DNA of 64,000 nucleotides, from the NCBI GenBank assembly GCA_964016885.1, contig OZ024740.1, positions 180,110,001 through 180,174,000 on the forward strand, in the 5' to 3' direction. Source of the stretch: Eledone cirrhosa (Eukaryota). Below the pieces are notes generated by a model. It had not been told where the DNA came from. It ran no database searches and saw only the letters and a list, made by a program, of their open reading frames with translations. Made by a program: the position numbers and the translations under genes. Positions within the stretch are counted from its first letter, which is position 1. Each line of letters begins with the position of its first letter. This document shows, piece by piece, positions 1,621 through 59,704 of this stretch.

Positions 1621-3283
1621 ACATACACATGTCCTGGCGGAGAAATGAGGAAATTCGCCATTAACACCCCAGATGTCTACAATCATTAATGGCTGCCTTT
1701 TGGTAAAATTATTCTTTGCATATGACCTAATTGGCAGCAAACGTATCGTCACACACGAAAATATTATGAAAAATGAGAAATATAATCTGAAAACAGGTCC
1801 AGCCAAAGGCGAAGACGACATAGAAACGCGTACACACACACACACACACACATAAATACACACACATACGCAATCAGACACATACACATACACGCACACA
1901 CATATATATATATATATAGATTAGGTATAAACCGACGGTTGTAGCTGCCGTAAAACATGTACTATTCCATCTATATATTAATTTCAACAACGTCATTATT
2001 CCGTGTGTCAGAATACTCGATTATCATTGGTTCATAGGTTTCAAGCGACTCCACCCAACTCAACGACGCCAAATGTAAATTAATATGCATAATGCCAATG
2101 AGGAAGTGAGAGGAGAGAGTAAGAAACAGAGAGGCAAATTGAACGCTGTAACTATTACTATGTGTGCGTGTGTATGTACGTGCGACTATGTTTATGTGTG
2201 TGCGTGCGTGCAGTGTTCCACAGAAAATAAAAGCAATTCAACTTTATCAAACAGTGAACTACAGCGGCGAGTCGCTCAGCCGGGAATGAAGAAACATGGG
2301 CCGAACAGCGCCATCGGAACGCCGAACTTCAGAGGCGAAGACATGCCGCCATGAATGAAGAGGACCTTGCTGAACAACGCCAACGAAACGCTGGAGCCAA
2401 GGAGCGACGGCGTGATGCGATGGTTGAAGACGAACTGGCTGAGCATCATCTTTTATATTAATTATCTATATCTATATCTACATATAATATAAAAGATTGG
2501 AACTTCCATCATCCTTTTGAGAAACGTGGAACAACCACGACTATGCAATAATACACGTTTTACAGTCAGGCAAAAGATGAACCATCTCATAGAGGTTACT
2601 ATTCTAGGCGGGAGCACCTAGAATTCTTTATATACTATGCACAAACGGTACAACGAAGAATCTAGTATATTTGGAAGATTTTTTTACTGTTTTTTGTAAA
2701 GACCACAGACTCGCCTCACACAGTAACCAGAAAAACATCCAATACAGTCATTTTCTCTTTTACCTGTGTTCTCTTATCATCTGTTTACCCGGGCGAAGCT
2801 GGGAACGTCAGTTAGTATATTTATTAATTTCAAGAACGTCAGTATTCCGTGTGTCATAATTCTCGATTATCATTGTTTCATAGGTTTCAAACGATTCCGC
2901 CCACCTCAACGACGCCAAACCGAAATTTATATGCATAATGCCAATCAGGGAGTGAGAGGGGAGTGTGTGAACGCTGTGTTCAATAACTATTAACATGTGT
3001 GCGTGTGTATGTACGTGCGCGTATGTTTATGTGTGCGCGTGCGTGCAGCGTTCCACAGAAAGTAAAAACTATCAACATGTGTGAGTGTGTGCGTGTATAA
3101 GTTTGCGTGCGTGTGCGCGTTTCCATGCGTGCATGTGTGTGGCGTTCCACAATCGCCACACAGTTTATCTGTAAGTGTGCCTGTCTGTCAGTCTAACATA
3201 CACAGAATTGTGAAGGGAGTAAATAGGGACCTTTTTTACATTAACGGACATTTTTTATATTTATTATTGTGATTTTTTGACAA

Positions 3284-6200
3284 TTGCTCGAAATGAATAC
3301 TGACAATAAAGGCAATTCGACTTTATCAGACAGTGAACTACAGCGGCGACGGCGTGCAGCCAGCAATGAAGAAAAACGGGCCCAACAGCACCATCAGAAC
3401 GCCGAACTTCAGAAGCGAAGACGTGCCGCCATGAATGAAGAGGAGTTGGCTGAACAACGCCAACGAAACACTGGAGCCGAGCAGCGACGGCGTGCTGCGA
3501 TGGTTGAAGTTGAAGTGGCTGAGCATCATCAGCACATGGCCGGAATTCAGCAGCAACGGCGTGCGGCGATGGATGAAGAGGAGCTGGCTGAACAGCGCCA
3601 GTGCAATACAGAAGTTCAGAAAATGTGTCGCCAAAGTGTTCCTCATTCCAGTAAAGGGGCTAGAAGGCGAACGAATGATAATAAAAATGGATCTTGGCAA
3701 CCGTTTCATTTTCCGATTGGTGGACGAGCAGAGTGTCCACATTGTGGAGCATTGCTTTGGAGGCACGAAAAGACGTGGACCACAATGTGCTGTCATAAAG
3801 GAGCAGTTCAACTAGAACCCTTGCGAATGCCGGATGATGAGGAGTCACCGCAGTTTAAAATACTAAGTATCTGGGGTGATCAAAGAGACCGAGGTAGATT
3901 ACTGCGCAAATATTCGCGGCAAATTAACAATTCATTAGCTTTAGCATCACAGAGAGTTAGTGAGATGTTTGAGAGTGGAACATGGCAACATAATGTAGTC
4001 ATTCAAGGCCGTTTGTATTATTGTATAGGTAATTTAGAAGTTACCCCATGCCTCGATTCGCTCAAATTTACGTTAACGATCCAGATTATAGTGAATGGGA
4101 GGAGGATATCAGGATGGGTTGGATGAAGTTGCCGGGAAATATAATTGAACTTGCACGGCAAAGGTTAAGTGATTTGATCCGTGATTTGCAATCATGGCTT
4201 AGACAGTGTAATCCTTATGTTATGGATTTCATGTTGGTGGCTGAACTGCAAAATGTTCAGCAGCAAAGATTGGTGATTAAGGCTGATGCAGTGCCAAGGA
4301 ATCAACACGAACGGCGATATAATGCCCCTGAAGGATATCGTGAAGTTGCTGTGTTGATGGACGATAAGCCTGTATCGAGAGATATCGTCCTCAATCGCAG
4401 AGATGGTGGTCTCAAGACTATCAATGAGTCAAATAGGGCATACGGTCCATTGCATTATGTTCTTTTATTCCCAAAAGGTGAAAATGGATGGAACATGTCT
4501 GTTCATTTAGATGATCATGAGAATCAGCATCAACAGGGAGGTGGCAATAGTCACAATAATTCGATTCGCGACTTTTACGCTTCCATTTGAACTAGAGGAA
4601 TCAACAGAGAAATGCACTATTTCAAGCCAGCAGATTGTTCCATGAATACTGTTGTATGGCATTCGCAAAGATCGAAAATCAAAGGCTAAATTATATAGCT
4701 AGAAATCAGCAACATATCAGAGCTGAATTGTATAATAATATACAGGGGATGCGATAACAGCCAATGATGCCAATTACAAGCAAATTGGTCGACACATCTT
4801 TTTGCCATCGTCGTTGATCGGCGGCCCGAGATATATGAACATTCGCTATCAGGATGCAATGGCTATTGTCAGAAAGTTTGGAAAGCCAGATTTATTTATA
4901 ACGGTTACATGCAATCCTGAATGGACTGATATTAAGGATGCACTTTTGCCAGAACAACAGCCAAAGGACCGTCCTGATATTGTGGCAAGGGTATTCAAAG
5001 AATATCTGAAAAGATAATGGATGATGTCGAAAAAGAGGGAATCTTTGGAGGTATAGTTGCTTTTAGAAACGTAATTGAATTCCAAAAAAGAGGATTGCCA
5101 AATGCACGTTTGCTGATCACTTTACATAGAGATTGCAAATTGAGATGTGCTGAGGATGTCGACAGCGTTGTGTGTGCTGAGCTGCCTGAGAATGAGGCAC
5201 TACGCAACTTAGTTGCAAAGTCAATGGTGCACAATCAATGCGGAGCGGCAAATCGGAAAGTGCCTTGCATGAAAAATAGCAAATGCAGTAAGCACTTTCC
5301 GAAATCTTTTGTCACGAACACTTCCTGGAATGATGGGGATGATTATCCCTCATACAGAAGACGGACGCCTGCCCATGGCGGTTTGGTCCAAAATGTAAAC
5401 GATCTACAGGTTACAAATCAATGGGTTGTGCCACACAATCCATATTTTATTATGAAATATCGTTGTCATATTAATGTGGACATTTGTAGCTCAATGGAAG
5501 CTTGCAAATATATATTCAAATATGTTTACAAAGGTCATGATCGGGCAATGATCAATGTCAAGAATGCGGACGCGAACCAAGGAGATGAAGTTGGCAGGTT
5601 CCAGGATGTTCGCTCGATTGGATCTAGCAAAGCTTACTGGAGAGTGTTCGATTTTGATCTCAATGAACGCAAACCCCGCGTTCACAAACTGACGGTTCAC
5701 TTAGAGAATAGGCAAATGGTCTGTTTTCAGGACACTAGAAGAGGTGTTGAAAGAATTGCTAAAGCACCACCTCCTAAGACGGAATTGACTGAGTGGTTAA
5801 AGCATAATAGGGAACATGCTTTGAACCCTTCGCACTATACGTGGGAGAAGAAGGGAAAGAAATGGAATGATAGAAAACAAAAGTTGATATTCATGACTAT
5901 TGGACGGGTTTGTAATGTCCATCCAGCATCTGGTGATGTGTTTTATCTCCGAATTCTGTTGCATAGTGATTTTGCGAGAGGCAAACAGAGCTTCGCTGAT
6001 TTAAAAACAATCAATGGCGTGTAATATGAAACATACCAGGCTGGGTGTCAACATCTGGGACTCCTTCAGAATGACGGTGAATGGAATAACGCCATGGAAG
6101 CTGCAGGAACAACACAGATGCCAGCTCAAATAAGGCAGTTGTTTGTCACGATTCTAGGATTATGCAATCCTGCCGACCCAAGAGAGTTGAACGCCATTGG

Positions 6201-7849
6201 GGAATTATGGCTGATGATTTTAGGCATCATCTTCAGGTCGATGATGAAAATTTGATGAAGGATATTGTTTTGCTCAATATTGAGTAACTGCTTGAGTTCA
6301 TTTGAAACGTTTCAGAGATTTTAATTTGCCAATTCCTGGTGTAGAAATGCGGCAACGTGTCTTAGCATTGAACATGAGATTGCAGCTTAGACGGTTGCCC
6401 CTAGATCGGAGGGAACTATTCCAGATTGATCCACTGGTACATCAACGTATTGTGGATGAACGTATGCCAATGTTGACCCAATCTCAGAGAGAATTGGTCG
6501 ATGGCGTTCTCCACTCGATTTCCACTAATGAGCAACTTTGTGCTTTCAGAGATGCTCCAGGATTCACGGGAAAGACATTCTGTTTCAACACTATGTTATC
6601 GGCAGTCAGAGCTCAGAGGAAGATTGCTCTCCTTGTGGCCACCATTGGGTTCGCTGCTACTTTGCTGAGTGATGGAAGGACCTTCCACTCATGCTTCAAG
6701 GCTCTATTGGCTGCGGATGAGTTGAGTGTCTGTAACATTACAGGACGGAGTGAACTCGCGGGCCTTATACGCAATACGTCTCTGATTATTTGGGACGAGG
6801 CTCCAATGGCACTCATATATTTGCTGGAGGCATTGGACAGCACTCTGAGAGATATCTGCGGTAGTGACCTGCCATTTGGTGGTAAGACTATCGTTCTTGG
6901 TGGCGATTTCAGACAGGTGCTACCAATTGTTAGGAATGCTCAAAGAGCGCAAATTGTCGATGCGTGTCTGAAAAAGTCCCCGTTGTGGTGCCATTTCAGA
7001 GTTTTGCGATTACACGATAATATGCGACTTCGTATGTTCGGGAAAAACGAAGAGGCTCAGACATACGGCCGATTGTTGATGCAGTTGGGAAACGATGAAT
7101 TGCCACACGTTGGTGATAATCAGACTGTAAGAATGCCAGACCATTTGGTCATGCCACTGGACCACCAAGCATTGATTGAGTGGGTGCTCCCTAATTTGAA
7201 TGCTTTTTGGCAGAATATCTCCTGAATATAGGAATGCGTTATTCTAACTCATACGAATGCAACGGTTGGTGAAATAAATTCACAAGTAGCCGGAATGTTT
7301 CCTGGAGAGGAATGGTTGACCGTCAGTGCGGATGCAATGGAGCGTAATCAGCAGAACAATATGGATGTTCCCACTGAGTATCTAAATTCACTTCAAATAC
7401 CCGGATTTCCCCCACATATTTTGAGGTTGAAAAAGGGTATGCCGATTATATTGCTTAGAAATATCAATCATAAAATGGGTCTTTGCAATGGTACCAGATT
7501 GATTGTTGAGAGATTGATTAATGGAAGAGTTTTAGAAGCTAAAGTCCCAGGCAGAGAGGAATCGGTTCTCATTCCGAGGATCATGCAGAGACCGAGTAAA
7601 GATCTGCTGCCATTCATTCGGCAAAGGAGACAGTTTCCCGTCAATTTGGCCTTCTCTATGACTGTCAACAAGGCACAGAGACAGACTTTCAAGCGAGGCG
7701 GCGTCTACGTGAATCATCCAGCATTCCGTCACGAGCAACTGTATGTTGCTGCATCTCGAGTGTGCGATCCTGATAGTATAACATTTGCAATTGATACTAC
7801 TAACAGAGGAACAACCCTGAATATTGTCTATAATGAAGCTTTGAGCTGA
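3284..7849 (+). pseudogene. Helitron RepHel transposase (STPR-like repeats, Zn motif, HUH Rep, PIF1-family helicase), broken by frameshifts and stops
   Basis: ORF pieces 3284-4126, 4048-4590, 4802-5017, 5017-6024, 6302-7225, 7295-7849. Motifs: CPHC...CCHKG, GGPRYM..YQDAMAIVRKFGKPDLFITVTCNPEW, EFQKRGLPNARL (degenerate HUH), YIFKYVYKG, DAPGFTGKTF, IIWDEAPM, GGDFRQVLP, LCNGTRL, QFPVNLAFSMTVNKAQ, QLYVAASRV. Confidence 0.95.
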
Positions 7850-13663: not shown

Positions 13664-14441
13664 CTAGCATTAAAGCCCGGCGTTGCTCGGGGTCATTAAG
13701 TTACCAAAGTTAGGTTGCACCACCCATTTTATGGCAGCACTTTTTTGTCTGCCAGGCACTAGGTGAATGAATTGCAGACCTGGAAGCAGGAACTGCGCCA
13801 GCAGTGACAATTGTAGTTTCGCCTATGGATATTAGCTCTGTGCAAAAAAGTGTTGAAATTTATTGTTTCACAGTACTTGCGCAACACGCGCGTAGACGAT
13901 GCCAGCCGAACAACAGACCTGCGTTGGAGTTGTTCTGCATGGTTGTCTGTGTGTTTTCTAAATTTAAGACAGTAAGGAGGGTTGTGATATGAGGGAGAGT
14001 TAGCTGTTGTTTCTAGCAGGTTTAGTGACCTCATAGAGGATATGTGTTTTCTAAATTTAAGACAGTAGGGAGTGGTATAATATGGGGGAGAGTTAGCTGC
14101 TGTTTCTAGCAGGTTTAGTGACCTCATAGAAGATATGTTTTCTAAATGTAAGACAGTAGGGAGGGGTTAGATATGGGGGAGAGTTAGCTGCTGTTTCTAG
14201 CAGGTTTAGTAACCTCATAGAGGATATGTGTTTTCTAAATTTAAGACAGAAGGAAGTGGTGTGATATGGGGGAGAGTTGGCTGCTGTTTCTAGCAGGTTT
14301 AGTGACCTCATAGAAGATATGTTTTCTAAATTTAAGACAGTAGGGAGGGGTGTGATATGGGGGAGAGTTAGCTGCTGTTTCTAGCAGGTTTAGTGACCTC
14401 ATAGAGGATATTATTGTTTATCATTATCTATAAAAGGCAGA
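13664..14441 (-). mobile_element. Non-autonomous Helitron carrying an internal minisatellite
   Basis: Minus strand: A|TCTGCCTTTTATAG at 14441, then hairpin CCGAGCAACGCCGGG and CTAG|T at 13667-13663. Confidence 0.75.
13953..14410. repeat. Five-copy 91/93 bp minisatellite
   Basis: gttttctaaat recurs at 13953, 14046, 14137, 14230 and 14321 (spacings 93, 91, 93, 91). Confidence 0.9.
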
Positions 14442-15039
14442 TTGTTGTTGTTGAAGTGTGTGTGTGTTTGTATGCGTTTGGAAAAGAGGTTTTAAAAAAG
14501 ATTTATCGCTTGTTGTTGAATAAATGTATCTGTTGCTTTTGAATAATTGTCGTTTCGTATGAAATGTAATAATTGTTTCTACTTTTTTGGCACAAGGCCA
14601 GCAATTACCAGTACATTACTGGTACTTTATGTAATAATAAACGTTCTCTATCTCTCTCACTCTCACTCTCTTCTCTCTCTCTCTCTCTCTCTCTCTTCGG
14701 CAATCACGCACGTTGTCAGATGATATGAGAGAGTAAAACGGACAGTATCACCATCAAGCTTGGAAAGAGAAAGTAGCAGAAAGTATGAGGTTGTATAGAT
14801 TTTGAATGGTAGTGGAAAGAGTTTAGCAGTTTAAATGACAGAGGAACATCGTAAAATATTGAGTTTTATCTATTTTTTGCGTCATTGTGGGTGAAATTGA
14901 AAAAATTAGATGTGCCAAGACGCTATTTCGAATACTGAATTGTAAATTTCAATTGAAGAAATTCTATATCGTAGATTTCTATAAGAAAGGAGCATGACCA
15001 CACACTGAGCTTTATAGATTATGATAAATGCAAATAATG

Positions 15040-15305
15040 AAATTTCATTTCTCAATCTTAGCACGGCTGATACTTAAATGTAAGTATGTATACGTACATA
15101 CATATATGTATACAGACGTACAGTAGTATGTATATACATACATACAATTCGGGCTGTTTGTTTACAAACAAACCGAATTATTATAATAAATGCTCGGTAA
15201 ACCCATACGTACATATATATATATGTGTGCATGTATGTATGTACATACATACTAGTGTACGTCTGTATATATATATATGTATGTACGTATACATGCTTAT
15301 ATATA
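15040..15305. mobile_element. Family X fragment with 5' inversion (homologous to 41917-42820)
   Basis: 15040-15146 matches 41950-42045 and 15147-15303 matches 42670-42815. Confidence 0.7.
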
Positions 15306-15310
15306 TAAAA

Positions 15311-15916
15311 TTATCTCCAAATTATTTTGTTGAGCAAAAATTTGCCAAAACTACTGCTATAGTTCATAGTAATAGTCAGGCTACTGTCTTATTAACACCC
15401 CACTCCTCACTGATTAACCTCGATGTCACGTGATTGATTCTTTTGAATTCGCCACCGACCAAGAAGGCAGTGATTTTTTCAATGTCCTGGAATTTAGTCC
15501 TCGCTTCCTTTTTTCCATCCACTGAATTATTTTTATTTAAGTTCCCTGTGTCCACGCATCGCCTGGGAACTTAGCTGAGAATTGACTTCCTGATGACGAA
15601 AGGTATTCTCCATGTTCCATTCGGGAACCATGTTTATTCCCTTTCAGAAACTAATTAGTTGGAGTGAAATTTTAGTAAGTAAGTTAATTTTTATAATTTT
15701 CTTATTTTACGTCTTTCATATAATTGTTCTGCATCCCCTTCCATTGAACTGCAAAGTTACTAACACAAAACCTGTATATTTGCTAGCATAGGTATGTATC
15801 TGTATATATATGTTGGTAGATATACAAATTCTTTATAATTATCTCCAAATTATTTTGTTGAGTAACAATTTGCCAAAACTACTGCTATAGTTCATAGTAA
15901 TAGTCAGGCTACTGTC
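15311..15916 (+). mobile_element. Retrozyme-like family Y, ~1.15 tandem units (528 bp period)
   Basis: ttatctccaaattattttgttgag recurs at 15311 and 15839. Contains an HHR at 15585-15665. Diverged homolog at 42861-43758 on the minus strand. Confidence 0.75.
15585..15665 (+). ncRNA. Type I hammerhead ribozyme with extended stem II
   Basis: acttc-CTGATGA-cgaaagg...cctttca-GAAA-ctaattag-TT-ggagt. Palindromic stem III, GUU site. Confidence 0.8.
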
Positions 15917-30434: not shown

Positions 30435-31142
<708 letters not shown>

Positions 31143-34894: not shown

Positions 34895-35779
34895 AAGTGG
34901 ATAAAAGAAGCGAATGTATAAAACTCGCCTTCATACCTTTAGTGAAACTATTGTGTATTATACAACTTTAAAACCAAATTGTTTGTTACATTATAACTAA
35001 GTGTAGTAGAAACGTAATTGTTTCCCACGCAATGATACAGCTCAATAACTGATTCACACTCACGCGGGTGAAAACTCCTATGTTTATCCATTTATTTTAA
35101 TTTCGTGAACTTTTCAATATCTGTTTTATATGTGCGAACCCATTTCGCTTTTAACATTTTCATCTTCCAATTAATTGAAAATTGTTATTTTTAGTTTAAC
35201 CCTATGAAAATAGCATATATATTTTCAAATGTGTAATTGATTATTTTGTTATTTGACCTTCTATTTAGATTAAGTCAACATCCGCAGCATTGAAATATTA
35301 ACTTGTATTCATATTATCACAAAATGGAAATTTATATCGATTTGACATTAATCTCTTGAGAAATAAAAGAAGAATGTGAGCTTACGTTGAACGTTAGAAG
35401 TGAGAAAACATATATGAACATATTAAAAACTACATGAAATTTTTGAGCATTCATTTATTTTAATCCTTATGCAATAATTTATATAGTCTGACCTAAACAA
35501 AATGCTAGTAAATATGATTTATTGCGTCTTGACATTTTGTTTTTTGTAATTGTTTTCTGTCACGAATAGGGATGTTAGTGCCAAAGGTTTCATGTAGTAT
35601 GTGTGTCAATTAATTATACATATTTGAATCTAAATATCAGTTTGGTTTCCTGGACAGGCCGCCCTGAATGAGACAGTCAGAAACAGCCTTTAAGTGGCTG
35701 GCTTCCCATCGTATATTGTTCTAGCCGGCCTCGATTGTGGTATAATTGTCAGAAGAATTAATATGACACTGTTTATCAC

Positions 35780-36265
35780 ATGGGGCGTATTAAATATTCT
35801 TACAATGATTTTGACACAAGCGACAAATATGGATTATTAACTCGAAATATTATGAGTTATTTTTGCCCATTAAGTAAAAACGGTCTCGATCGGAATTTAG
35901 TTTATGAATGCATAGTTAAAAAAAAAAAAAAGTCTTATAGTTATATTGGTGCAACTTCTGAATTTAAAGAAAGGTGGTATAACCATCGCCACTCGTTTAA
36001 AGGTAAAGATAAAAGATTTAGCACGGCACTCCAAGAATTGATTTGGTCGCTTAAAAATAAAAATATTGAATATTCCCTTTCTTGGCAGAAACTTTCTCAT
36101 GCTTTTCCAAATGAAACTGCATCTATATACATGGGGTGTGATCTCTGTACCCCAGAGATTCTTCACCTCGTTCAAAATAGACAATTAGCTATAAATAAAT
36201 GCTCTGAAATATTTAGCTCCTGTCTTCACAAATTCAGCAAAACGTCTCATAAGGCATTTAGTTAA
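35780..36265 (+). pseudogene. PLE GIY-YIG endonuclease fragment
   Basis: CPL..LVYECIV...SYIGATSEFKERWYNHRHSF...IWSLK...CDLC...SSCLHK, homologous to the C-terminus of 47138-48886. Confidence 0.8.
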
Positions 36266-41916: not shown

Positions 41917-42289
41917 ACCGAAAACGTTAAATGAAAAAGAATGAAACGAAATTTCATTTCTCACTCTTAGTACGGGTGATATTAAATATAAGTACGTACA
42001 TACATATATGTATACAGACGTACAGTAGTATGTATATACATAAATACATGCCCACATATATATATATATGTACGTATGGGTTTACCGAACATTTATTAAA
42101 TGTTCGGTTTCTTTGTAAACAAACAGCGCAAATTACGCCGTACAGTGTTCGGAAATCATCGTTTCCCTTTTGTCCAACACTGACAAAGGAGCGATGAACT
42201 AGTTTCAAGCTTATTAGCTATCGTCAGCATTGTATACCTTCCTTTCAGATGATTGAACGTTTGAAGGTTAATATATGTGTGCGTGTATG

Positions 42290-42350
<61 letters not shown>

Positions 42351-42820
42351 TACGGTACGTCTGTATAGATATATGTATGTACGTACTTATATTTAAGTAT
42401 CAGCAGTACTAAGAGTGAGAAATGAAATTTCGTTTCATTCTTTTCCATCTATCGTTTTCGGTACGCCCGGCCGACTAACTGAATCTATATGCAAATTAGG
42501 CTGCTCAGCCCTTAATATGCATAAGGAAAGTATACACTTTCAAACGTCCAATCATCTGAAAGGAGGGTATACGATGCTGACGATAGGTAATAAGCTTGAA
42601 ACTAGTTCATCGTTCCTTTGTCAGTGTTGAACAAAAGGGCAACGATGTTTGCCAAACAATGTATGACGTAATTCGGGCTGTTTGTTTACAAACGAACCGA
42701 AGATTATAATAAATGTTCGCTAAGCCCATACGTACATATGTATATATGTGTGCATAAATGTATATATATACATACTACTGTACGTATGTATACATATATG
42801 TATGTACGTACTTATATTTA
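41917..42820. mobile_element. Retrozyme-like family X: minus copy 41917-42267 and plus 1.1-unit tandem 42348-42820 (425 bp period)
   Basis: tactac(g/t)gtacgt...cttatattta at 42348 and 42773. The minus copy reads through the junction. HHRs at 42191-42233 (minus) and 42571-42613 (plus). Confidence 0.75.
42571..42613 (+). ncRNA. Minimal type I hammerhead (family X)
   Basis: acgatg-CTGACGA-taggtaataagctt-GAAA-ctag-TT-catcgt with a 6 bp stem I. The inverted copy at 42191-42233 has an AGCT/AGCT stem II. Confidence 0.75.
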
Positions 42821-43049
42821 TATATATAAATATATATCTACATATATATATATATATATATAATTTAATATATCAACTAACATAAGCGCACAGATGCACG
42901 CCTATGCCAGCAAATACACAGGTTATGTCATAGTACCTAGGTGGTTCAATGCAGGAGGATGCAGAACAATAATATAAAAGACGTAAAGTAAGAAAATCTT
43001 TTTCAAAAAATTTTTTTTAAAATTTTTTTACTAACTTACTTAAATTTTC

Positions 43050-43131
43050 ACTCCAACTAATTAGTTTCTGCAATGGGATAAAGACAGTTACGTAATCTAA
43101 CTGTCGAGAATTCATTGCGTCATCAGGGAGT
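43050..43131 (-). ncRNA. Type I hammerhead, extended stem II (family Y)
   Basis: actcc-CTGATGA-cgcaatg...gacagtta(gattacg)taactgtc...cattgca-GAAA-ctaattag-TT-ggagt. Confidence 0.85.
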
Positions 43132-43610
43132 CTATTCTCAGCTAAGTCTCCAGGCAATGCGCGGACACTGGCGGCTCATATAAAAATAATAATAATTCGG
43201 TAGATAGAACAGCTGGCGAGGACTGAATTCTATGTACTGAAATCCTCACTGCTTCTAGTCAAATGGCCGATTCTAAAGAATCAATCACGTGACACAGAGG
43301 CTAGTCAGAAGGAATGGGATGGTAAGATGACTGACGCCTACTAACACCCCAAAAAAAAAATTTTTTTAGAAGTGGTTTTGGCAGGTTTGCTCGACAAATC
43401 AGTGATTTGGAGATAAATATAGATAATTTAATATATCAACTAACATAAGCGCACAGATGCACGCCTATGCCAGCAAATACACAGGTTATGTCATAGTACC
43501 TAGGTGGTTCAATGCAGGAGGATGCAGAACAATAATATAAAAGACGTAAAATAAGAAAATCTTTTTCAAAAAATTTTTTTTTTTAATTTTTTTTACTTAC
43601 TTAAATTTTC

Positions 43611-43692
43611 ACTCCAACTAATTAGTTTCTGAAATGGGATAAAGTCAGTTACGTAATCTAACTGTCGAGAATTCATTGCGTCATCAGGGAGT
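43611..43692 (-). ncRNA. Type I hammerhead (family Y, second tandem copy)
   Basis: As 43050-43131, with two substitutions in the stem II region. Confidence 0.8.
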
Positions 43693-43803
43693 CTATTCTC
43701 AGCTAAGTCTCCAGGCAATGCGCGGACACTGGCGGCTCATATAAAAATAATAATAATAAAGATTTTCTTATTTTACGTCTTTTATATATATATATATATA
43801 TAT

Positions 43804-43938
<135 letters not shown>

Positions 43939-44316: not shown

Positions 44317-44365
44317 GATTCCTGATGATTTCTAATGAATGAAACAGTTCTAGTCCTGTAGAATC
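44317..44365 (+). ncRNA. Type I hammerhead
   Basis: gattc-CTGATGA-tttc(taat)gaat-GAAA-cag(ttctagtc)ctg-TA-gaatc; stem III has a real loop. Confidence 0.7.
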
Positions 44366-46085: not shown

Positions 46086-46177
46086 ACGAAGGAAAAGTGG
46101 TAAGGAACCAGGTGGACCATAACGCACCAAAGTACTCAATACTTGAGGTAGTAGAGTGGGTAATAGGAACCAGTAAG

Positions 46178-46271
46178 ACCCCGACAGCTGAGCTCAAGCC
46201 GTTTCGACGGCTAATTCTGGACTAAATGAAAATTTATCCTGGTATTTAAATAGCCGATCTTCTCAAGGGGT
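46178..46271 (-). ncRNA. U3:A8 hammerhead in the PLE 3' pLTR
   Basis: Reverse complement of 49878-49971. Confidence 0.7.
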
Positions 46272-47137
46272 AATTCGATATATGGTCAAAGTGATTGTCA
46301 AAAATCAGTAGTAATTCTGTGGTTGCAAATTAGTAGGGGAGATGGTGGCTAAACCTGCCAGTAGGAGAAAGAGGGGAGGGGGTGGAGTAGACCCAATCAA
46401 GCGTTGGTAGTGCCAGCTACAGCTGGGCATGAGGTCAAAGAAGATACAGGGGAGGGGGGGGGGGAGTCGGAACGGTAGGTAGAACAATGGGGGGTAGAAA
46501 TATCTAGGAAAGAAAAAATACTGAGAGAGAAGAAAAGCAAATAAGTGTAAAGAAAAAAGTAAAGTAAATTAAATTCTACGACCTAGGTGTCAGGCTATTG
46601 TTAGGCTAGAATAAAATAAATAAATAAAGAAAGAAGTAAAGAAATAAATAAATAAATAACGAAATAAGTAAAAGAACTAGGTGGGACGGATAGGCAAGGA
46701 CCCTTTTAACAGGTATAAGTACGTAAATGATACGGTGACGGGTCAACAAAAGGGGCCAAAATACTAAAGAGACTACCACGAAATAAACAATAAAGGTTTC
46801 CATCCCGGGCCAGCAACGACCCAGTGCAGCAAAGTGAACTTGTACGAGATAATAATTCTGAGTCCCGAGAAAAATATATATTAATGCTAACTCTAAAGGA
46901 TCTAAAATAAGCTACAAGAAAGTTCGTACGAAATAAAGGTAGAATACGGAGAAATAAATTCAGAATCCACCCCACCCAGAAGAAAAGCGATGCAAGAAAT
47001 ACTGAAACGAAAAAATAAGGCATAAGTGCCACTAAGAAATATAGAGGGCACAGAGAATAGTGGGAGCGGTTGGAAAAAGGGGGCAAGTATCCGGGGTCTA
47101 AGCCAACTGCTATAAAGGGCGGAGTCCGCCAAATCTA

Positions 47138-48980
47138 TCATAGACTAGGGGAGGGGGTGGTGGGGGTACTAAGGCTACATGGGGCCAAAGGGCAGCCTCG
47201 GGTGGGCGAGAAAAGAAGCCGACAAAGGAGAAGAGCTGGGGTAGAAGGACCAAGGAGAGAGGGGGGAAGGAAATAAAGGAAGCGATAAAAGAATACAAAG
47301 AAGATCTTACGTCTTCCTTGGCAAGCAGGGGTTACCCATTGCAAAATCGGCAAGTGGGGTGTTATAGCCCTAGTCCCCCCCCCCCCCGGGTCATTATGGG
47401 GTTTGAGGGCGAGGTAAGTCCTACGCAATCTATGTTTACATGCAGTAACCAGTTCATCTTTCTTGTTTAGGAGTTGGTCCGTGGAAAACAGCATTTGTAA
47501 AGTTTCCTCCGAGCATAAATTGCACGGACGGCGTCCTCCCGTGTAAGAATTGGCTCTGGACAGTAATCTCCAAGTGAGATCATAGGTGATGTTGTTGTCC
47601 TTGAGGTCCCATATGTGGCCCGAAAGTGTAGTGGCGTGACGCCGGGCCGGGTTTCGGAAGGTATGTCTATGTTGGTATAGCCGGGTCTTGAAGTCACATG
47701 CGGTAAGTCCTATATAGGCTTTGTTGGAGGTATCCGTCCTCACGTTGCACTGGTAGATCACATTACGGTCTCTGCATCTATTGTTGAGTGGGCAAATAGA
47801 TCTATCCGGGCAGTTACACCTCCTGGTTGGTCCTCCACTGCTATTTAGGTTATTTCTGCCATCGGGGTTGAGTTTTTTGTTGTTAGAGGAGACGATGTTT
47901 TGTACGAAGTTTGGTGTAGTGCTGTAAGAGAGTTTGATGGTATTTTTGTTAATTATGTTGTGGTAGCGGTGTTGTAATGGGAAGTGTTTTTCAATGAGCC
48001 TAAAGAATAGTTTCCCGATGGGAGTAGTCACCTCTGCGTTGTGGGGAGGATTGAACCATGTTACATTGCGTGAGCGGCGGTGTCTCCTGCTGGTTCCGCT
48101 AATGGGAGCTGGACAGTAGGATATTTCTTCCCGGAAACCACTCCGCTTGAGGGCCTGGTTGTAATAAGGCGCATGTTCATCGAATATCCGCTCATTAGCT
48201 GACAAACGGGATATGCGGAGGGAGATGTTTTTGACCAGGTTGTTTGTGATGTTCCTAGGATGATTTGATCGGCGGTGGATGTAGTGCAGATTGTCATTAG
48301 GTTTCCTGTATGGGTAGTACAGGTCGTTTTCGAGGTCGAGGGTCACGTCCAGGAAGTTTACTCGGGTCAGGGACGTTTGTAGGGTTATTTTAAATCCCCA
48401 GTCGCGGAAGAATCTGATTAATTGTTTCCGGACCCGATCTGTACTACTGGGGTTGTACCCTTTAAGGGTAAGGAGCCCATCATCACGGTACAATCCACCA
48501 CCGAATGCAGGAAACATATCAGTGAGTTTGGCTATTAGGAATAATCCTATAAGATCAGTGACCTCCGCCGAATCCGTGGCGCCCATGCTGACGTCGAAGG
48601 GTGAGTCGGGAAATCTTTTTATCCATTTAGAGTCGTCAAAGAGTAAGACTGTCTTCCTGGCGTGGAGGATGATTTTTCTTTCCTGGTCGGTGATGGGCAC
48701 GAGTGTTTCGGCGAAGTCCAAGGCGACAGTAAGTAGCGGTAAGGTGATTGAAGCATAGTAGCTATCTATGTCGAACTGTATGAATTTAGTTTCTCGTTTA
48801 TCCTCCATATTGCTGAACCAGGAGATTACTTCCTGGGTGTTGATCCATAGGCTAAGTCGGGTGTGTTGCTTGACTTTTGGTATCACGCGGTCTAGGATTT
48901 TTTTGCTGATTCTCCCTATGTCGGACTTCGTTGGGTTAATAAGCCTGATAGAGGGTTTACGGTCAAAATCGGATTTATGG
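47138..48980 (-). CDS. PLE reverse transcriptase + GIY-YIG endonuclease (N-terminally truncated; Naiad-like motifs)
   Basis: Open from HKSDFDRKPSIRLINPTKSDIG through FDIDSYY, SMGATDS, YRDDGL, FLDVTLDL, WFNPP, CNC..CPLNNRC, VIYQC..YIGLT, FKTRLYQH, CNLC, ACKH. Confidence 0.92.
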
Positions 48981-49877
48981 TACCCCCACCACCCCCTCCC
49001 CTAGTCTATGATAGATTTGGCGGACTCCGCCCTTTATAGCAGTTGGCTTAGACCCCGGATACTTGCCCCCTTTTTCCAACCGCTCCCACTATTCTCTGTG
49101 CCCTCTATATTTCTTAGTGGCACTTATGCCTTATTTTTTCGTTTCAGTATTTCTTGCATCGCTTTTCTTCTGGGCGGGGTGGATTCTGAATTTATTTCTC
49201 CGTATTCTACCTTTATTTCGTACGAACTTTCTTGTAGCTTGTTTTAGATCTTTTAGAGTTAGCATTAGTATATTTCTCGGGACTCAGAATTATTATCTCG
49301 TACAAGTTCACTTTGCTGCACTGGGTCGTTGCTGGCCCGGGATGGAAACCTTTATTGTTTATTTCGTGGTAGTCTCTTTAGTATTTTGGCCCCTTTTGTT
49401 GACCCGTCACCGTATCATTTACGTACTTATACCTGTTAAAAGGGTCCTTGCCTATCCGTCCCACCTAGTTCTTTTACTTATTTCGTTATTTATTTATTTA
49501 TTTCTTTACTTCTTTCTTTATTTATTTATTTTATTCTAGCCTAACAATAGCCTGACACCTAGGTCGTAGAATTTAATTTACTTTACTTTTTTCTTTACAC
49601 TTATTTGCTTTTCTTCTCTCTCAGTATTTTTTCTTTCCTAGATATTTCTACCCCCCATTGTTCTACCTACCGTTCCGACTTCCTCCCCCTCCCCCTCCCC
49701 TGTATCTTCTTTGACCTCATGCCCAGCTGTAGCTGGCACTACCAACGCTTGATTGGGTCTACTCCACCCCCTCCCCTCTTTCTCCTACTGGCAGGTTTAG
49801 CCACCATCTCCCCTACTAATTTGCAACCACAGAATTACTACTGATTTTTGACAATCAGTTTGACCATATATGGAATT

Positions 49878-49971
49878 ACCCCTTGAGAAGATCGGCTATT
49901 TAAATACCAGGATAAATTTTCATTTAGTCCAGAATTAGCCGTCGAAACGGCTTGAGCTCAGCTGTCGGGGT
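49878..49971 (+). ncRNA. U3:A8 hammerhead in the inverted pLTR
   Basis: acccc-TTGAGAA-gatcggcta...tagccgtc-GAAA-cggcttgagctcagctg-TC-ggggt; predicted cleavage after 49966. Confidence 0.7.
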
Positions 49972-49981
49972 CTTACTGGTT

Positions 49982-50062
<81 letters not shown>

Positions 50063-57245: not shown

Positions 57246-57927
57246 GTATATATATATACCCACCCACCCGCAATCTCAAGAACGTGAAACTAATAAACCT
57301 TTGTTTGTACTTTCTCTCTGTTTTGTTCCCGTTCCATTTTTCACCTATATATATATATATATATATTAGGATTGGTGCTCTAAAATAGCGATGTATACAT
57401 GAATGTATGTATAGTATACCGTATTTTTAATTAAAAACATTTAGAAGAGCATACGCCAAAAAGAAGTAAGTGATATAGTCACTATTCTAAAACTGATAGC
57501 GTATGGTCTTCTAGATGTTGCTAATTAAACATACTGTATATTGCCAAATATTGTATACATGCAATCATATATATATACATATATATATATCTATAAACAT
57601 CCGTATAGAGTGGACGAGTGAAAATAAAGGTTACTCAGTAGCGAAATATAGATTAAGTAGCCACATAACTTACTATTCTGACTCATGTTGGCAGTAGGCG
57701 TAGTAACCACTCATGGTAAATTTGTGGGTTTACGAAGCTATTTAACACCTATTTGGATTGGATCCCCATTCACTCTGAAGACTTCTTAAGAGCTTTTTGA
57801 TGTTTGCGCTGCTGGGGTTCTATTTTCGATTCTCTCCAGACCAGAGTTTGGTTTACATAGTACCAGAAGCCTGAGTCGCCAGACCTGACCACACACACAC
57901 GCACACACACACACACACACACGCCCA

Positions 57928-57972
<45 letters not shown>

Positions 57973-58003
57973 AATAAACACAACCTTACACACACACACA
58001 TAT

Positions 58004-59704
58004 AGACCTAGAAGAAATAGATCCCGTCGCATTTGTTGGTTTAACCCACCATATAATATGGAGGTGGCCACACCATTAGCTAACATCTTTCTTTCCCTTA
58101 TTACGAAGCATTTTCCCCCTACACATAAATATAGTAAACTTTGTAATAGAAATACTATTAAAATTTCTTACTCTACGACTCCTAACCTTGCACATAACAT
58201 CACAGCTTCAAATTTAGCTAAACTACCTAGCCGTAGGAACACGTGCAACCCTGTAGTTAGTACTAACTGTAATTGTAGGAATCGGGCTGATTGCCCCCTA
58301 TCCGGGAAATGCCTCTCTAGTAACATTGTCTACAAATGTAAGGTTGTAACACCCACGTCCCGTAGGGCCTACACAGGGTTAACCGCCAATAGTTTCAAGC
58401 AGCGTCTTTACATGCATACCCAATCTTTTCGTTACCCTCTAAGAAGGAATATGACGTCACTTTCAGCTTATATCTGGAGTCTAAAAGACAACCACACCCA
58501 ATATAAGTTACACTGGGAGATCCTAGCTAGGGCTAGATCGTATAACGGAAGTAAAAGACCATGTGACCTCTGCGCCGCTGAGGCCCTGGAAATACTCTAC
58601 GCTACAGACCACATCTTAAACAAAAAATCTGAGGCAATTTCGGCTTGTAAACATAAATTGCACAAAACTTTCCTGTATTACAGCCCCACGTTATACCCTA
58701 ACGGATAGCACGATCTATACGTGGATATTTTACGTCTTGATGTGGGAGTTAAGTATATGTTTTGTTTATTCCTTTACTTATTTGCATAGGTAAGTATATA
58801 TTACCCGTATGTTTTGTGAAGGTATGTATACCTTCTCGTACGTATATTTGACTGTTATAGCGTATAATTTTTACATATTCTGGTATTTAGGGTTTGGCTA
58901 TGTGTATACGGGAGTTTTGCGTCCGCGTGAGTGTGCAGGTTCGTACGTATGGTGGGTGTGTGTATATGTGTAGTTCTTGTTTTAGTTGACTTACGTCTCC
59001 GAACATTCGAGTATTTATATGTAGGTATGCGTGTGCGCTTGTTATATACGTATTTAATTACTTATATACGTTTATATAATTATTTATTTATTTGTACACA
59101 AGCATACACACACACACATATTTATATGTGCGTGGTTTTGTATACCCATGGTAGGTTTTGCGTATGCTTTTGTATGTACGTATCTGTTTGCGTGTATGTA
59201 TTTATTTGTTTCTATTACTTCTGTATTGTATTTATTTACTTTGTTCTTAACTCTGTAGCGGAGATTCTTTTGGTCTCCTAGTTAGAATTTTAGTCTACGA
59301 TTTCTGCTATACCATTTACGTGGTTTTGTCTTTGCGTGCTATTGTTCTCCACGCTCCACATACGACTCATTATCTTCGTTTTTTCGTTCATTGCCAGAGA
59401 ACGTCTCTATGCACCACCTAAGAGAACATTAGTCTACGACCTCTTTTATACCATAAACGTGGTTTTGTCTTTGCGCGTAATTGTTTTTCACCGCTCCTAT
59501 TAATGACGTATTATTCGTTTTTTCCCGTTCTTTGCCAGGGAACGTTACCACGAACCAAAGTATCGTATTCCTGTCTTCCTCAGGTTGCAACGTTTTTTGA
59601 AATATCCAGTGCTGCGTTTACAGATTGACTTTGTTAGTTTCAGAGGATCTCCCGTTAAGGGTGAAAGCAGCGATTCTTTGCTTAAACTTTAATCTGTTAT
59701 TTTA

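Follow-up and report, generated by a model that had tools for sequence, protein, structure and literature searches.

A dispersed non-LTR retrozyme family of Eledone cirrhosa, probably mobilised by a Hydra-type Penelope-like element

A short repeat in the genome of Eledone cirrhosa is, at the level of sequence, a non-LTR retrozyme. Its tandem units each carry a type I hammerhead ribozyme (HHR), are non-coding, have a GC content of 36%, and occur in many dispersed copies, which bears out an earlier note on this DNA that had called the element retrozyme-like. The copies end at two fixed 3' sites, one in each of two head-to-head arms, and their arms can run through many units. From these patterns, we consider it probable that the family is mobilised by a Penelope-like element (PLE) of the Hydra type, with rolling-circle reverse transcription of RNA circles as the likely route. 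The analysis started from one insertion in the window, a stretch of 64,000 nucleotides of contig OZ024740.1 to which all coordinates without a locus name refer, and was extended to the whole genome.

The insertion in the window contains a 563-bp non-coding unit in 1.6 tandem copies, as had been described. The copies start at 42862 and 43425 with a period of 563, and over its 333 nt the second matches the first at 97% identity. The longest ATG-initiated ORF in the unit has 32 aa, there is no ORF of at least 120 aa within the studied interval, and the RT and GIY-YIG ORF of an autonomous Hydra-clade PLE is absent from the unit. The architecture of the element is one of tandem and inverted arms, not of LTRs. 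The earlier note had reported (TA)n flanks and a short 5' inversion. The (TA)n is present on both sides of the element. A 30-nt inverted piece (43758-43787) does match the reverse complement of 43535-43564 with 100% identity, but it is better described as a second, separately primed arm. The predicted monomer is more stable as a linear fold than its shuffles (z about -4.4; 0 of 100 shuffles as stable), and its circular fold scores -136 compared with -108 +/- 6.5 for 30 shuffles. Part of the 563-bp unit was also covered at low depth by contigs of run X5, from another organism. Table 1 lists the features of the insertion and its relatives in the window.

Table 1. Coordinates in the window of the studied insertion, its hammerheads and related elements.
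Feature	Position	Strand	Remarks
Older-subfamily copy of the studied family	15302..15887	+	71-75% identical; HHR core 15590, compensatory stem II
Left (TA)n target, end of neighbouring HHR-bearing repeat (family X)	42813..42860	.	
Main arm ('B arm')	42860..43757	-	1.6 units in tandem; 5' truncation at unit position 229; continues into (TA)n from its 3' end, fixed site B
'Tail' between priming sites A (U453 = 42972) and B (about U8-12, next unit)	42860..42971	-	
Complete 563-bp unit, reference U	42862..43424	-	unit position = 43425 minus window coordinate
Downstream type I hammerhead	43050..43131	-	core CUGAUGA 43126-43120; predicted GUU cleavage after 43055
Predicted 561-nt cleavage-to-cleavage monomer	43055..43615	-	36% GC
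Partial second unit (U229-563)	43425..43757	-	97% identical to first
Upstream hammerhead	43611..43692	-	intact core (43687); stem II with two mismatches; cut predicted after 43616
Second, head-to-head arm ('A arm'), U424-453	43758..43787	+	continues into (AT)n from its 3' end, fixed site A
Right (AT)n target, then (AG)n	43788..43805	.	
Coding Hydra-clade PLE H1	46086..49986	-	two-arm, two-site architecture; U3-A8 hammerhead; 80-nt tail

The two hammerheads of the insertion have predicted GUU cleavage sites after 43616 and 43055, which are 561 nt apart. Hammerhead cleavage is slower at GUU than at GUC. The downstream ribozyme has a stem I of ACUCC/GGAGU, a C.A mismatch at 10.1-11.1, a 6-bp stem II (GCAAUG...CAUUGC) with a distal hairpin, the GAAA element, and a palindromic stem III. 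The claim of a complete type I HHR on the minus strand of each copy stands for both cores and for the spacing of the sites, but not for stem II of the upstream ribozyme, which has two mismatches. When constrained to the HHR structure, the upstream copy folds at -14.6 kcal/mol and the downstream copy at -27.3 kcal/mol. Because of the two mismatches and the weaker constrained fold, the upstream ribozyme is probably impaired even with its core complete. A circle of about 560 nt is better supported for the family, by the structure of its arrays, than for the window locus, where the upstream HHR is damaged.

Hammerheads of the family have the conserved core CUGANGA / GAAA / NUH with stems I-III. 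At position 10.1-11.1, where G-C is usual, 381 of 386 distinct copies have a C.A mismatch. The G10.1-C11.1 pair of hammerheads has been termed highly conserved (PMC4209133), and an axolotl HHR with U.U at this position cleaved weakly as a single copy but well in dimeric form (PMC7229834). GUU is listed among the cleavable NUH triplets (PMC3138052). Rfam hammerhead models gave no match to the motif at E up to 1, nor up to 10, and the Rfam miRNA matches were (TA)n artefacts.

Substitutions in the stems provide evidence for a maintained structure. Covariation was analyzed in an alignment of 41 HHRs, 2 from the window and 39 of 62 that were picked from 103 distinct locus sequences. Stem II pair 38-92 is UA in 20 of the 41 rows, CG in 12 and AU in 8, pair 41-89 is UA in 21 and GC in 17, and three pairs of the distal hairpin have changed on both sides. 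Shuffles scored 0.094 (0 of 500) and slid controls no more than 0.071, where the alignment gave a covariation score of 0.231; related rows count many times in it, and its core invariance follows from the choice of rows. A second comparison used BLAST-aligned copies from 121 loci. Core positions polymorphic in at least four loci numbered 0 of 11, as against 114 of 393 other unmasked positions (p 0.025); five of these 11 positions lie inside the 28-mer that picked 61 of the 121 loci, and the six CUGA-GA positions lie outside it. That 28-mer, which covers the 3' half of the HHR, has 5,416 exact matches on many contigs of the 3.0-Gb genome, and the reversed control has none. The excess of exact matches over the control, together with the compensatory changes in stem II, places the motif beyond chance. 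Judged by these substitutions, the hammerhead structure is under selection across subfamilies.

The family is large and of mixed age. Its subfamilies are about 70% to 98% identical to reference U, and 2,976 exact junctions between an A end and (TA)n were counted genome-wide. The earlier note had proposed a genome-wide check of copy number and start phases. By the HHR matches the repeat occurs more than 5,000 times, and the phases proved not to be random, with 3' ends at two fixed sites. Random start phases of the copies are thereby ruled out. Of the loci parsed, 61 form a position-ordered sample and the remaining loci are best matches. A mark called locus-specific below is specific within the loci sampled.

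The 3' ends lie at site A (U453, 83 nt past the cut) or at site B (about U8-12 in the next unit). These sites are about 120 nt apart, and the interval between them corresponds to the 'tail' of Penelope. Both kinds of end finish in TAT, and 166 of 171 A or B 3' ends run into (AT)n. Parsing of 141 loci gave 69 with A+B, 31 with B only and 26 with A only; the other 15, with at least one arm of another end, were left out of the pairing count. A further 20 long loci yielded 16 A+B, one A+A and three single-armed insertions. Over the 161 parsed loci, 85 of the 86 classifiable two-arm loci are A+B, one is A+A, and none is B+B (p about 1e-24 compared with independent choice). The sole A+A locus, L223 (G000:C3:56250000-56256500), has arms of 4.9 and 2.8 units. 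The position-ordered sample contains 32 A+B, 17 B, 11 A and one unclassified locus. Arms shorter than 40 nt, such as that of the window insertion, were missed in the first set, and four loci scored as B-only do carry a short A arm.

The second arm is not a by-product of the first. In three loci (L047, L075 and L085) the two arms do not overlap, which means that both arms were primed on RNA and rules out a fold-back origin of the second. The lengths of A and B arms are uncorrelated (rho 0.11, p 0.55, 32 loci). In 6 of 53 two-arm loci, both arms begin within 7 nt of one template position, as if the RTs had halted at one break. Partial tandems, an inverted 5'-truncated arm, a one-ended tail, and a microsatellite target are insertion features of the PLE type. 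Together with the pairing of sites one per arm, they argue for the PLE mobilisation that had been suggested from the window alone.

The arms also carry information about the template. In the position-ordered sample, 82 of 92 arms pass at least one cleavage site. The longest arms have 12.3 and 15.0 units, and pure head-to-tail arrays reach 15 units. Unit junctions across the cleavage site are exact and free of indels in 224 of 229 cases, taken from 80 loci that were not picked on the HHR pattern. No pile-up of 5' ends was found at the cleavage site among 207 ends, of which 5 lie at U369-372 compared with 4.35 expected. The exact junctions, the lack of 5'-end enrichment, and the long arms together indicate templates that were continuous across the cut, either circles or uncleaved multimers. 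Could the RT instead have jumped between cleaved linear monomers, from the 5' end of one to the 3' end of the next, with no ligated circle? Both arms of L192 begin at the cleavage site (U370/371), as a cleaved linear template would give, and five other arms begin at U369-372. However, template jumps are usually imprecise, whereas nearly all junctions are exact, and 5' ends at the cut occur at the chance level. We therefore regard such jumping as very improbable.

Copies within a locus resemble each other most and are usually near-identical across both arms, as expected if a single unit was read repeatedly. The exceptions to nearest likeness within a locus are two neighbours that were mis-joined and a few pairs of older copies. 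In-phase mismatches number 98 in 28 loci, with 101.4 expected. Among shared variants in 35 loci, 26 occur in all copies (16 of them in L088 alone) and one occurs in phase only. The 29 long loci represent 16 haplotypes, each fixed across its units. Of the A/T tracts, 12 of 12 are identical in L202, as are 10 of 11 in L203, where the tract is a different one. In L206, L231 and L234, every unit of both arms, or almost every one, carries locus-specific marks. The youngest loci (L202, L203, L225 and L228) have long arms, where thousands of aligned cells hold 0-2 substitutions.

One locus, L229 (G000:C4:311539300-311546000), is built differently. Two monomer types with four linked markers alternate in B1-B5 and A1-A2, in register. 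No other substitutions occur at its unmasked positions, and its marks are present in no other sampled locus. Rolling round a dimeric circle is expected to produce this pattern. A duplicated-dimer donor may account for it as an alternative, and the pattern comes from one locus.

These observations bear on whether the arrays arose at the DNA level, by short insertions followed by tandem duplication, unequal crossing over, and gene conversion. Such a satellite route is raised in the discussion of one preprint on related elements (10.64898/2026.07.22.740005). The non-periodic mosaics of L201 and L224 and the arm-specific variants of L022 and L226 would fit it, and all four loci misfit a single monomer circle. 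DNA-level amplification is nevertheless improbable, as it has to contend with long arms in the youngest, nearly substitution-free loci, with inverted arms that are both long and carry common marks, and with the alternation in L229 that stays in register across the inversion. Some insertions probably used multimers, and some arrays were probably reshuffled later.

A more serious competitor to the circle is two-site PLE priming on an uncleaved or partly cleaved linear multimer transcribed from long genomic arrays. The HHR would then be weak, and circles would play no part. Several observations fit this alternative. For the anole PLE, HHR cleavage was dispensable in vitro and unprocessed RNA was the main substrate (PMC11167929). 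Also against the circle, eight of nine Xenopus dimers showed no cleavage in vitro (10.64898/2026.07.22.740005). The GUU site and the C.A mismatch point the same way. Variants in phase are found in short arms of L220, L140, L150 and L166, although dimer circles fit them equally well; the GG-to-TT variant of L220 is confined to that locus, with 2 matches genome-wide. One common substitution haplotype is shared by 15 of 31 long young loci. A further point against the rolling circle is that single variants are in excess in units unpaired across arms, with 44 compared with 47 in paired copies (p=0.012) and, in a second count, an unpaired to paired ratio of 34:41 where 1:2 is expected.

A strand excess also suggests an unlocated long array, which would favour the linear multimer. 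Internal units are skewed genome-wide, with 3,270 forward and 2,705 reverse, whereas A ends are not (1,501 and 1,475). Old types are even (1,338 and 1,304), and one young type has 574 and 479. The remaining internal units, 1,358 and 922, hold a forward excess of about 440 and are of the window's A-site type. Over the young types as a whole, the forward excess is about 440-560 internal units. By these counts, the excess is probably due to one or a few long arrays, possibly a long master array. Queries of 4 and 6.6 units did not find such an array among the candidates scored (29 of 2,692 and 33 of 1,008, respectively), where arms had at most 12-15 units. This absence counts against the linear multimer. 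So does the fact that 5'-truncated copying can only shorten arrays, yet the long loci carry 16 separately fixed haplotypes, and so does the single in-phase variant set against the 26 shared by all copies. We judge the linear multimer unlikely, though it has the largest claim among the alternatives to the rolling circle.

The candidate source of the mobilising protein is a coding PLE. H1, a young PLE that lies three kb from the studied element, carries the Hydra-clade marks DKT, RW(R) and CxCX5C. Its many genome copies are 98-99% identical with intact 784-aa open frames, and four copies form a tandem with a 3,531-bp period at G000:C1:437.20 Mb. Its ends are A'+B' in 8 of 8 insertions with both ends readable (30 loci). 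Pfam gave no match for a piece of the H1 ORF, and an Atlas search returned unnamed HTH_animal/GIY-YIG/RVT clusters only. H1 shows no sequence likeness to unit U and was rejected as the source of the 563-bp unit on that ground. A second PLE family, H2, has 41-47% protein identity to H1, a tail of ~100 nt and the same A/B rule. The region from the cleavage site to B was compared between the unit and H2 for three copies. Of 300 shuffles each, 0, 0 and 26 did as well when aligned globally, a likeness that an A/T gradient may inflate. In local alignment the counts were 2, 8 and 159 of 300, and H1 gave no signal. These comparisons make H2 a candidate donor of the mobilising protein, if a tentative one. 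The window also holds an RT C-terminal fragment, which we take to be LINE-like, and two C-terminal fragments of Hydra-type PLEs, with 37% and 51% identity to H1, at 30435-31025, 35762-36265 and 57875-58708.

A coding PLE could be related to the unit in another way, if the unit were only its pLTR, seen as truncated ends. The earlier note had named this as the case against its proposal, a pLTR with fixed ends. The ends are indeed fixed, at two internal sites, and fixed ends, a tail, and inverted arms are all PLE features. In L132 (1822-3839, minus), moreover, the C-terminus and 3' UTR of H2 pass into an old-subfamily B arm with no (TA)n between. The unit is nevertheless not the pLTR of a coding PLE, since it forms pure arrays of up to 15 units and L132 is the only PLE-joined locus. 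Among the PLE C-termini less than 80% identical to H1 that could be followed to (TA)n in L001-L242 and the window, nine of them listed, L132 alone enters the unit. The PLE part of L132 is H2. Copies of H2 themselves lead into an HHR and tail of another kind, and in L132 the rest of H2 is missing from the next 900 nt. By its structure, L132 is possibly the product of an RT switch between two RNAs, or of an insertion plus a deletion. The pLTR explanation is thus largely refuted, and little credence is left to it.

Other repeats surround the insertion. Family X (41917-42820, with pieces also at 15036-15289) is an HHR-bearing repeat with a unit of about 425 nt and two inverted arms. Its type I HHR at 42577 (+) has U.U at the base of stem II, a palindromic stem III, and a GUU site. 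The studied element is inserted in the terminal (TA)n of family X, and the two have no sequence likeness. A motif scan returned two more hammerhead-like matches at 44322 and 45866 (+), the latter resembling the H2 type. Rep/PIF1-helicase frames, presumably Helitron-like from their translations, are split over several ORFs at 3281-7849. A 91-bp tandem repeat with 5 copies and a 184-bp higher-order period lies at 13950-14411.

The proposed cycle would begin with transcription of multi-unit loci. The type I HHR, whose structure is under selection, would cut these transcripts at GUU, probably slowly or as a dimer, and the resulting ~560-nt monomers, with some dimers, would be ligated into circles. 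A PLE protein would then bind the region after the HHR and cut both strands of a (TA)n target. The two 3' ends would prime at the fixed sites ~120 nt apart, one per strand, using TAT microhomology; the ends and their pairing are observed, and the enzymology is what they suggest. Both cDNAs would travel round the template in reverse, making 0.05 to 15 turns, before being joined 5' to 5'. The arm structure is read directly from the loci, and a circular template would account for it. Circular templates for more-than-unit reverse transcription have been proposed, without a test, in 2014 (PMC4209133) and 2020 (PMC7229834), and for the anole PLE a pair of internal RT start sites, between which the tail lies, has been demonstrated in vitro (PMC11167929).

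A more specific version of this cycle seems to us evenly balanced between right and wrong. A dimeric Hydra-type PLE protein would clamp one RNA circle at two sites, with each target strand priming one of them, and both RTs would roll round monomeric or occasionally dimeric circles. The slow C.A/GUU hammerhead would be selected so that circles survive, and the genome would be a direct record of the retrozyme/PLE cycle. If true, a two-site clamp on a circle accounts for PLE tandems, inverted arms, and the one-sided tail together.

The route of retrozymes to new sites, and the tandems, inverted arms, and one-end tail of PLEs, are open questions in the cited papers. In the family described here, a short template has inserted thousands of times, in many cases very recently, under a near-absolute rule of one site per strand, and one array has a period of 2. 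A direct in vitro test is within reach, as one genome supplies the 560-nt substrate, both exact priming sites, and Hydra PLE ORFs of 784 aa that are intact. Titles and abstracts in the literature, a scope that leaves most subscription journals, Repbase and Dfam outside, held no account of the studied family, of strict one-site-per-arm pairing, or of genomic rolling-circle evidence. Like families could be listed in the supplements of 10.64898/2026.07.22.740005.

The closest known systems by composition are the metazoan non-LTR retrozymes (Cervera and de la Pena 2020, PMC7229834; Li, Clavereau and Pollet 2026, 10.64898/2026.07.22.740005). They too are tandem repeats without coding capacity, in which each unit has a single type I HHR; their GC content is below 50%, they form dispersed multi-copy families, and they co-exist with PLEs. 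The monomer had been called rather large. At 563 nt it does exceed the 170-400 nt given in the first account (PMC7229834), but it falls within the 51-972 bp of the second (10.64898/2026.07.22.740005). The studied family differs in its long covarying stem II, its C.A mismatch, and its GUU site. Its two head-to-head arms in (TA)n with two fixed ends are a feature undescribed in the parts of these papers that were consulted. The weak-HHR features of the family resemble those of the axolotl HHR_Amex2, whose stem II has U.U at its base.

Hydra-clade PLEs (Craig et al. 2021, PMC8557442) are alike in their mode of insertion. They share (TA)n targeting, an HHR near the 3' end, partial tandems, an inverted 5'-truncated arm, and a one-end tail. 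In contrast to them, the studied family has no ORF, and its tail is about 120 nt, compared with 80 in H1, about 100 in H2 and 30-40 in that account (PMC8557442). The unit lacks likeness to H1 and has a weak collinear likeness to H2. The same source presents non-autonomous Chlamys elements such as MRC1, which are likewise non-autonomous PLE derivatives with multicopy head-to-tail insertions. As presented there, they are mostly without HHRs, resemble their autonomous partner at the 3' end, and inhabit green algae (PMC8557442).

The enzymology of the family is best compared with Poseidon PAc of Anolis (Frangieh et al. 2024, PMC11167929). PAc likewise starts RT at two internal sites, one at each limit of the tail, and has an AT-rich target; both target strands are cut and extended, and a protein dimer is predicted. 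PAc is coding, whereas the studied family is non-coding. The PAc start sites are reported as not homologous to the target, whereas TAT microhomology is present at both ends here. Lastly, PAc showed no difference in start site between the strands in vitro (PMC11167929), whereas the family uses one site per arm in all but one of its classifiable two-arm loci, a stricter pairing.
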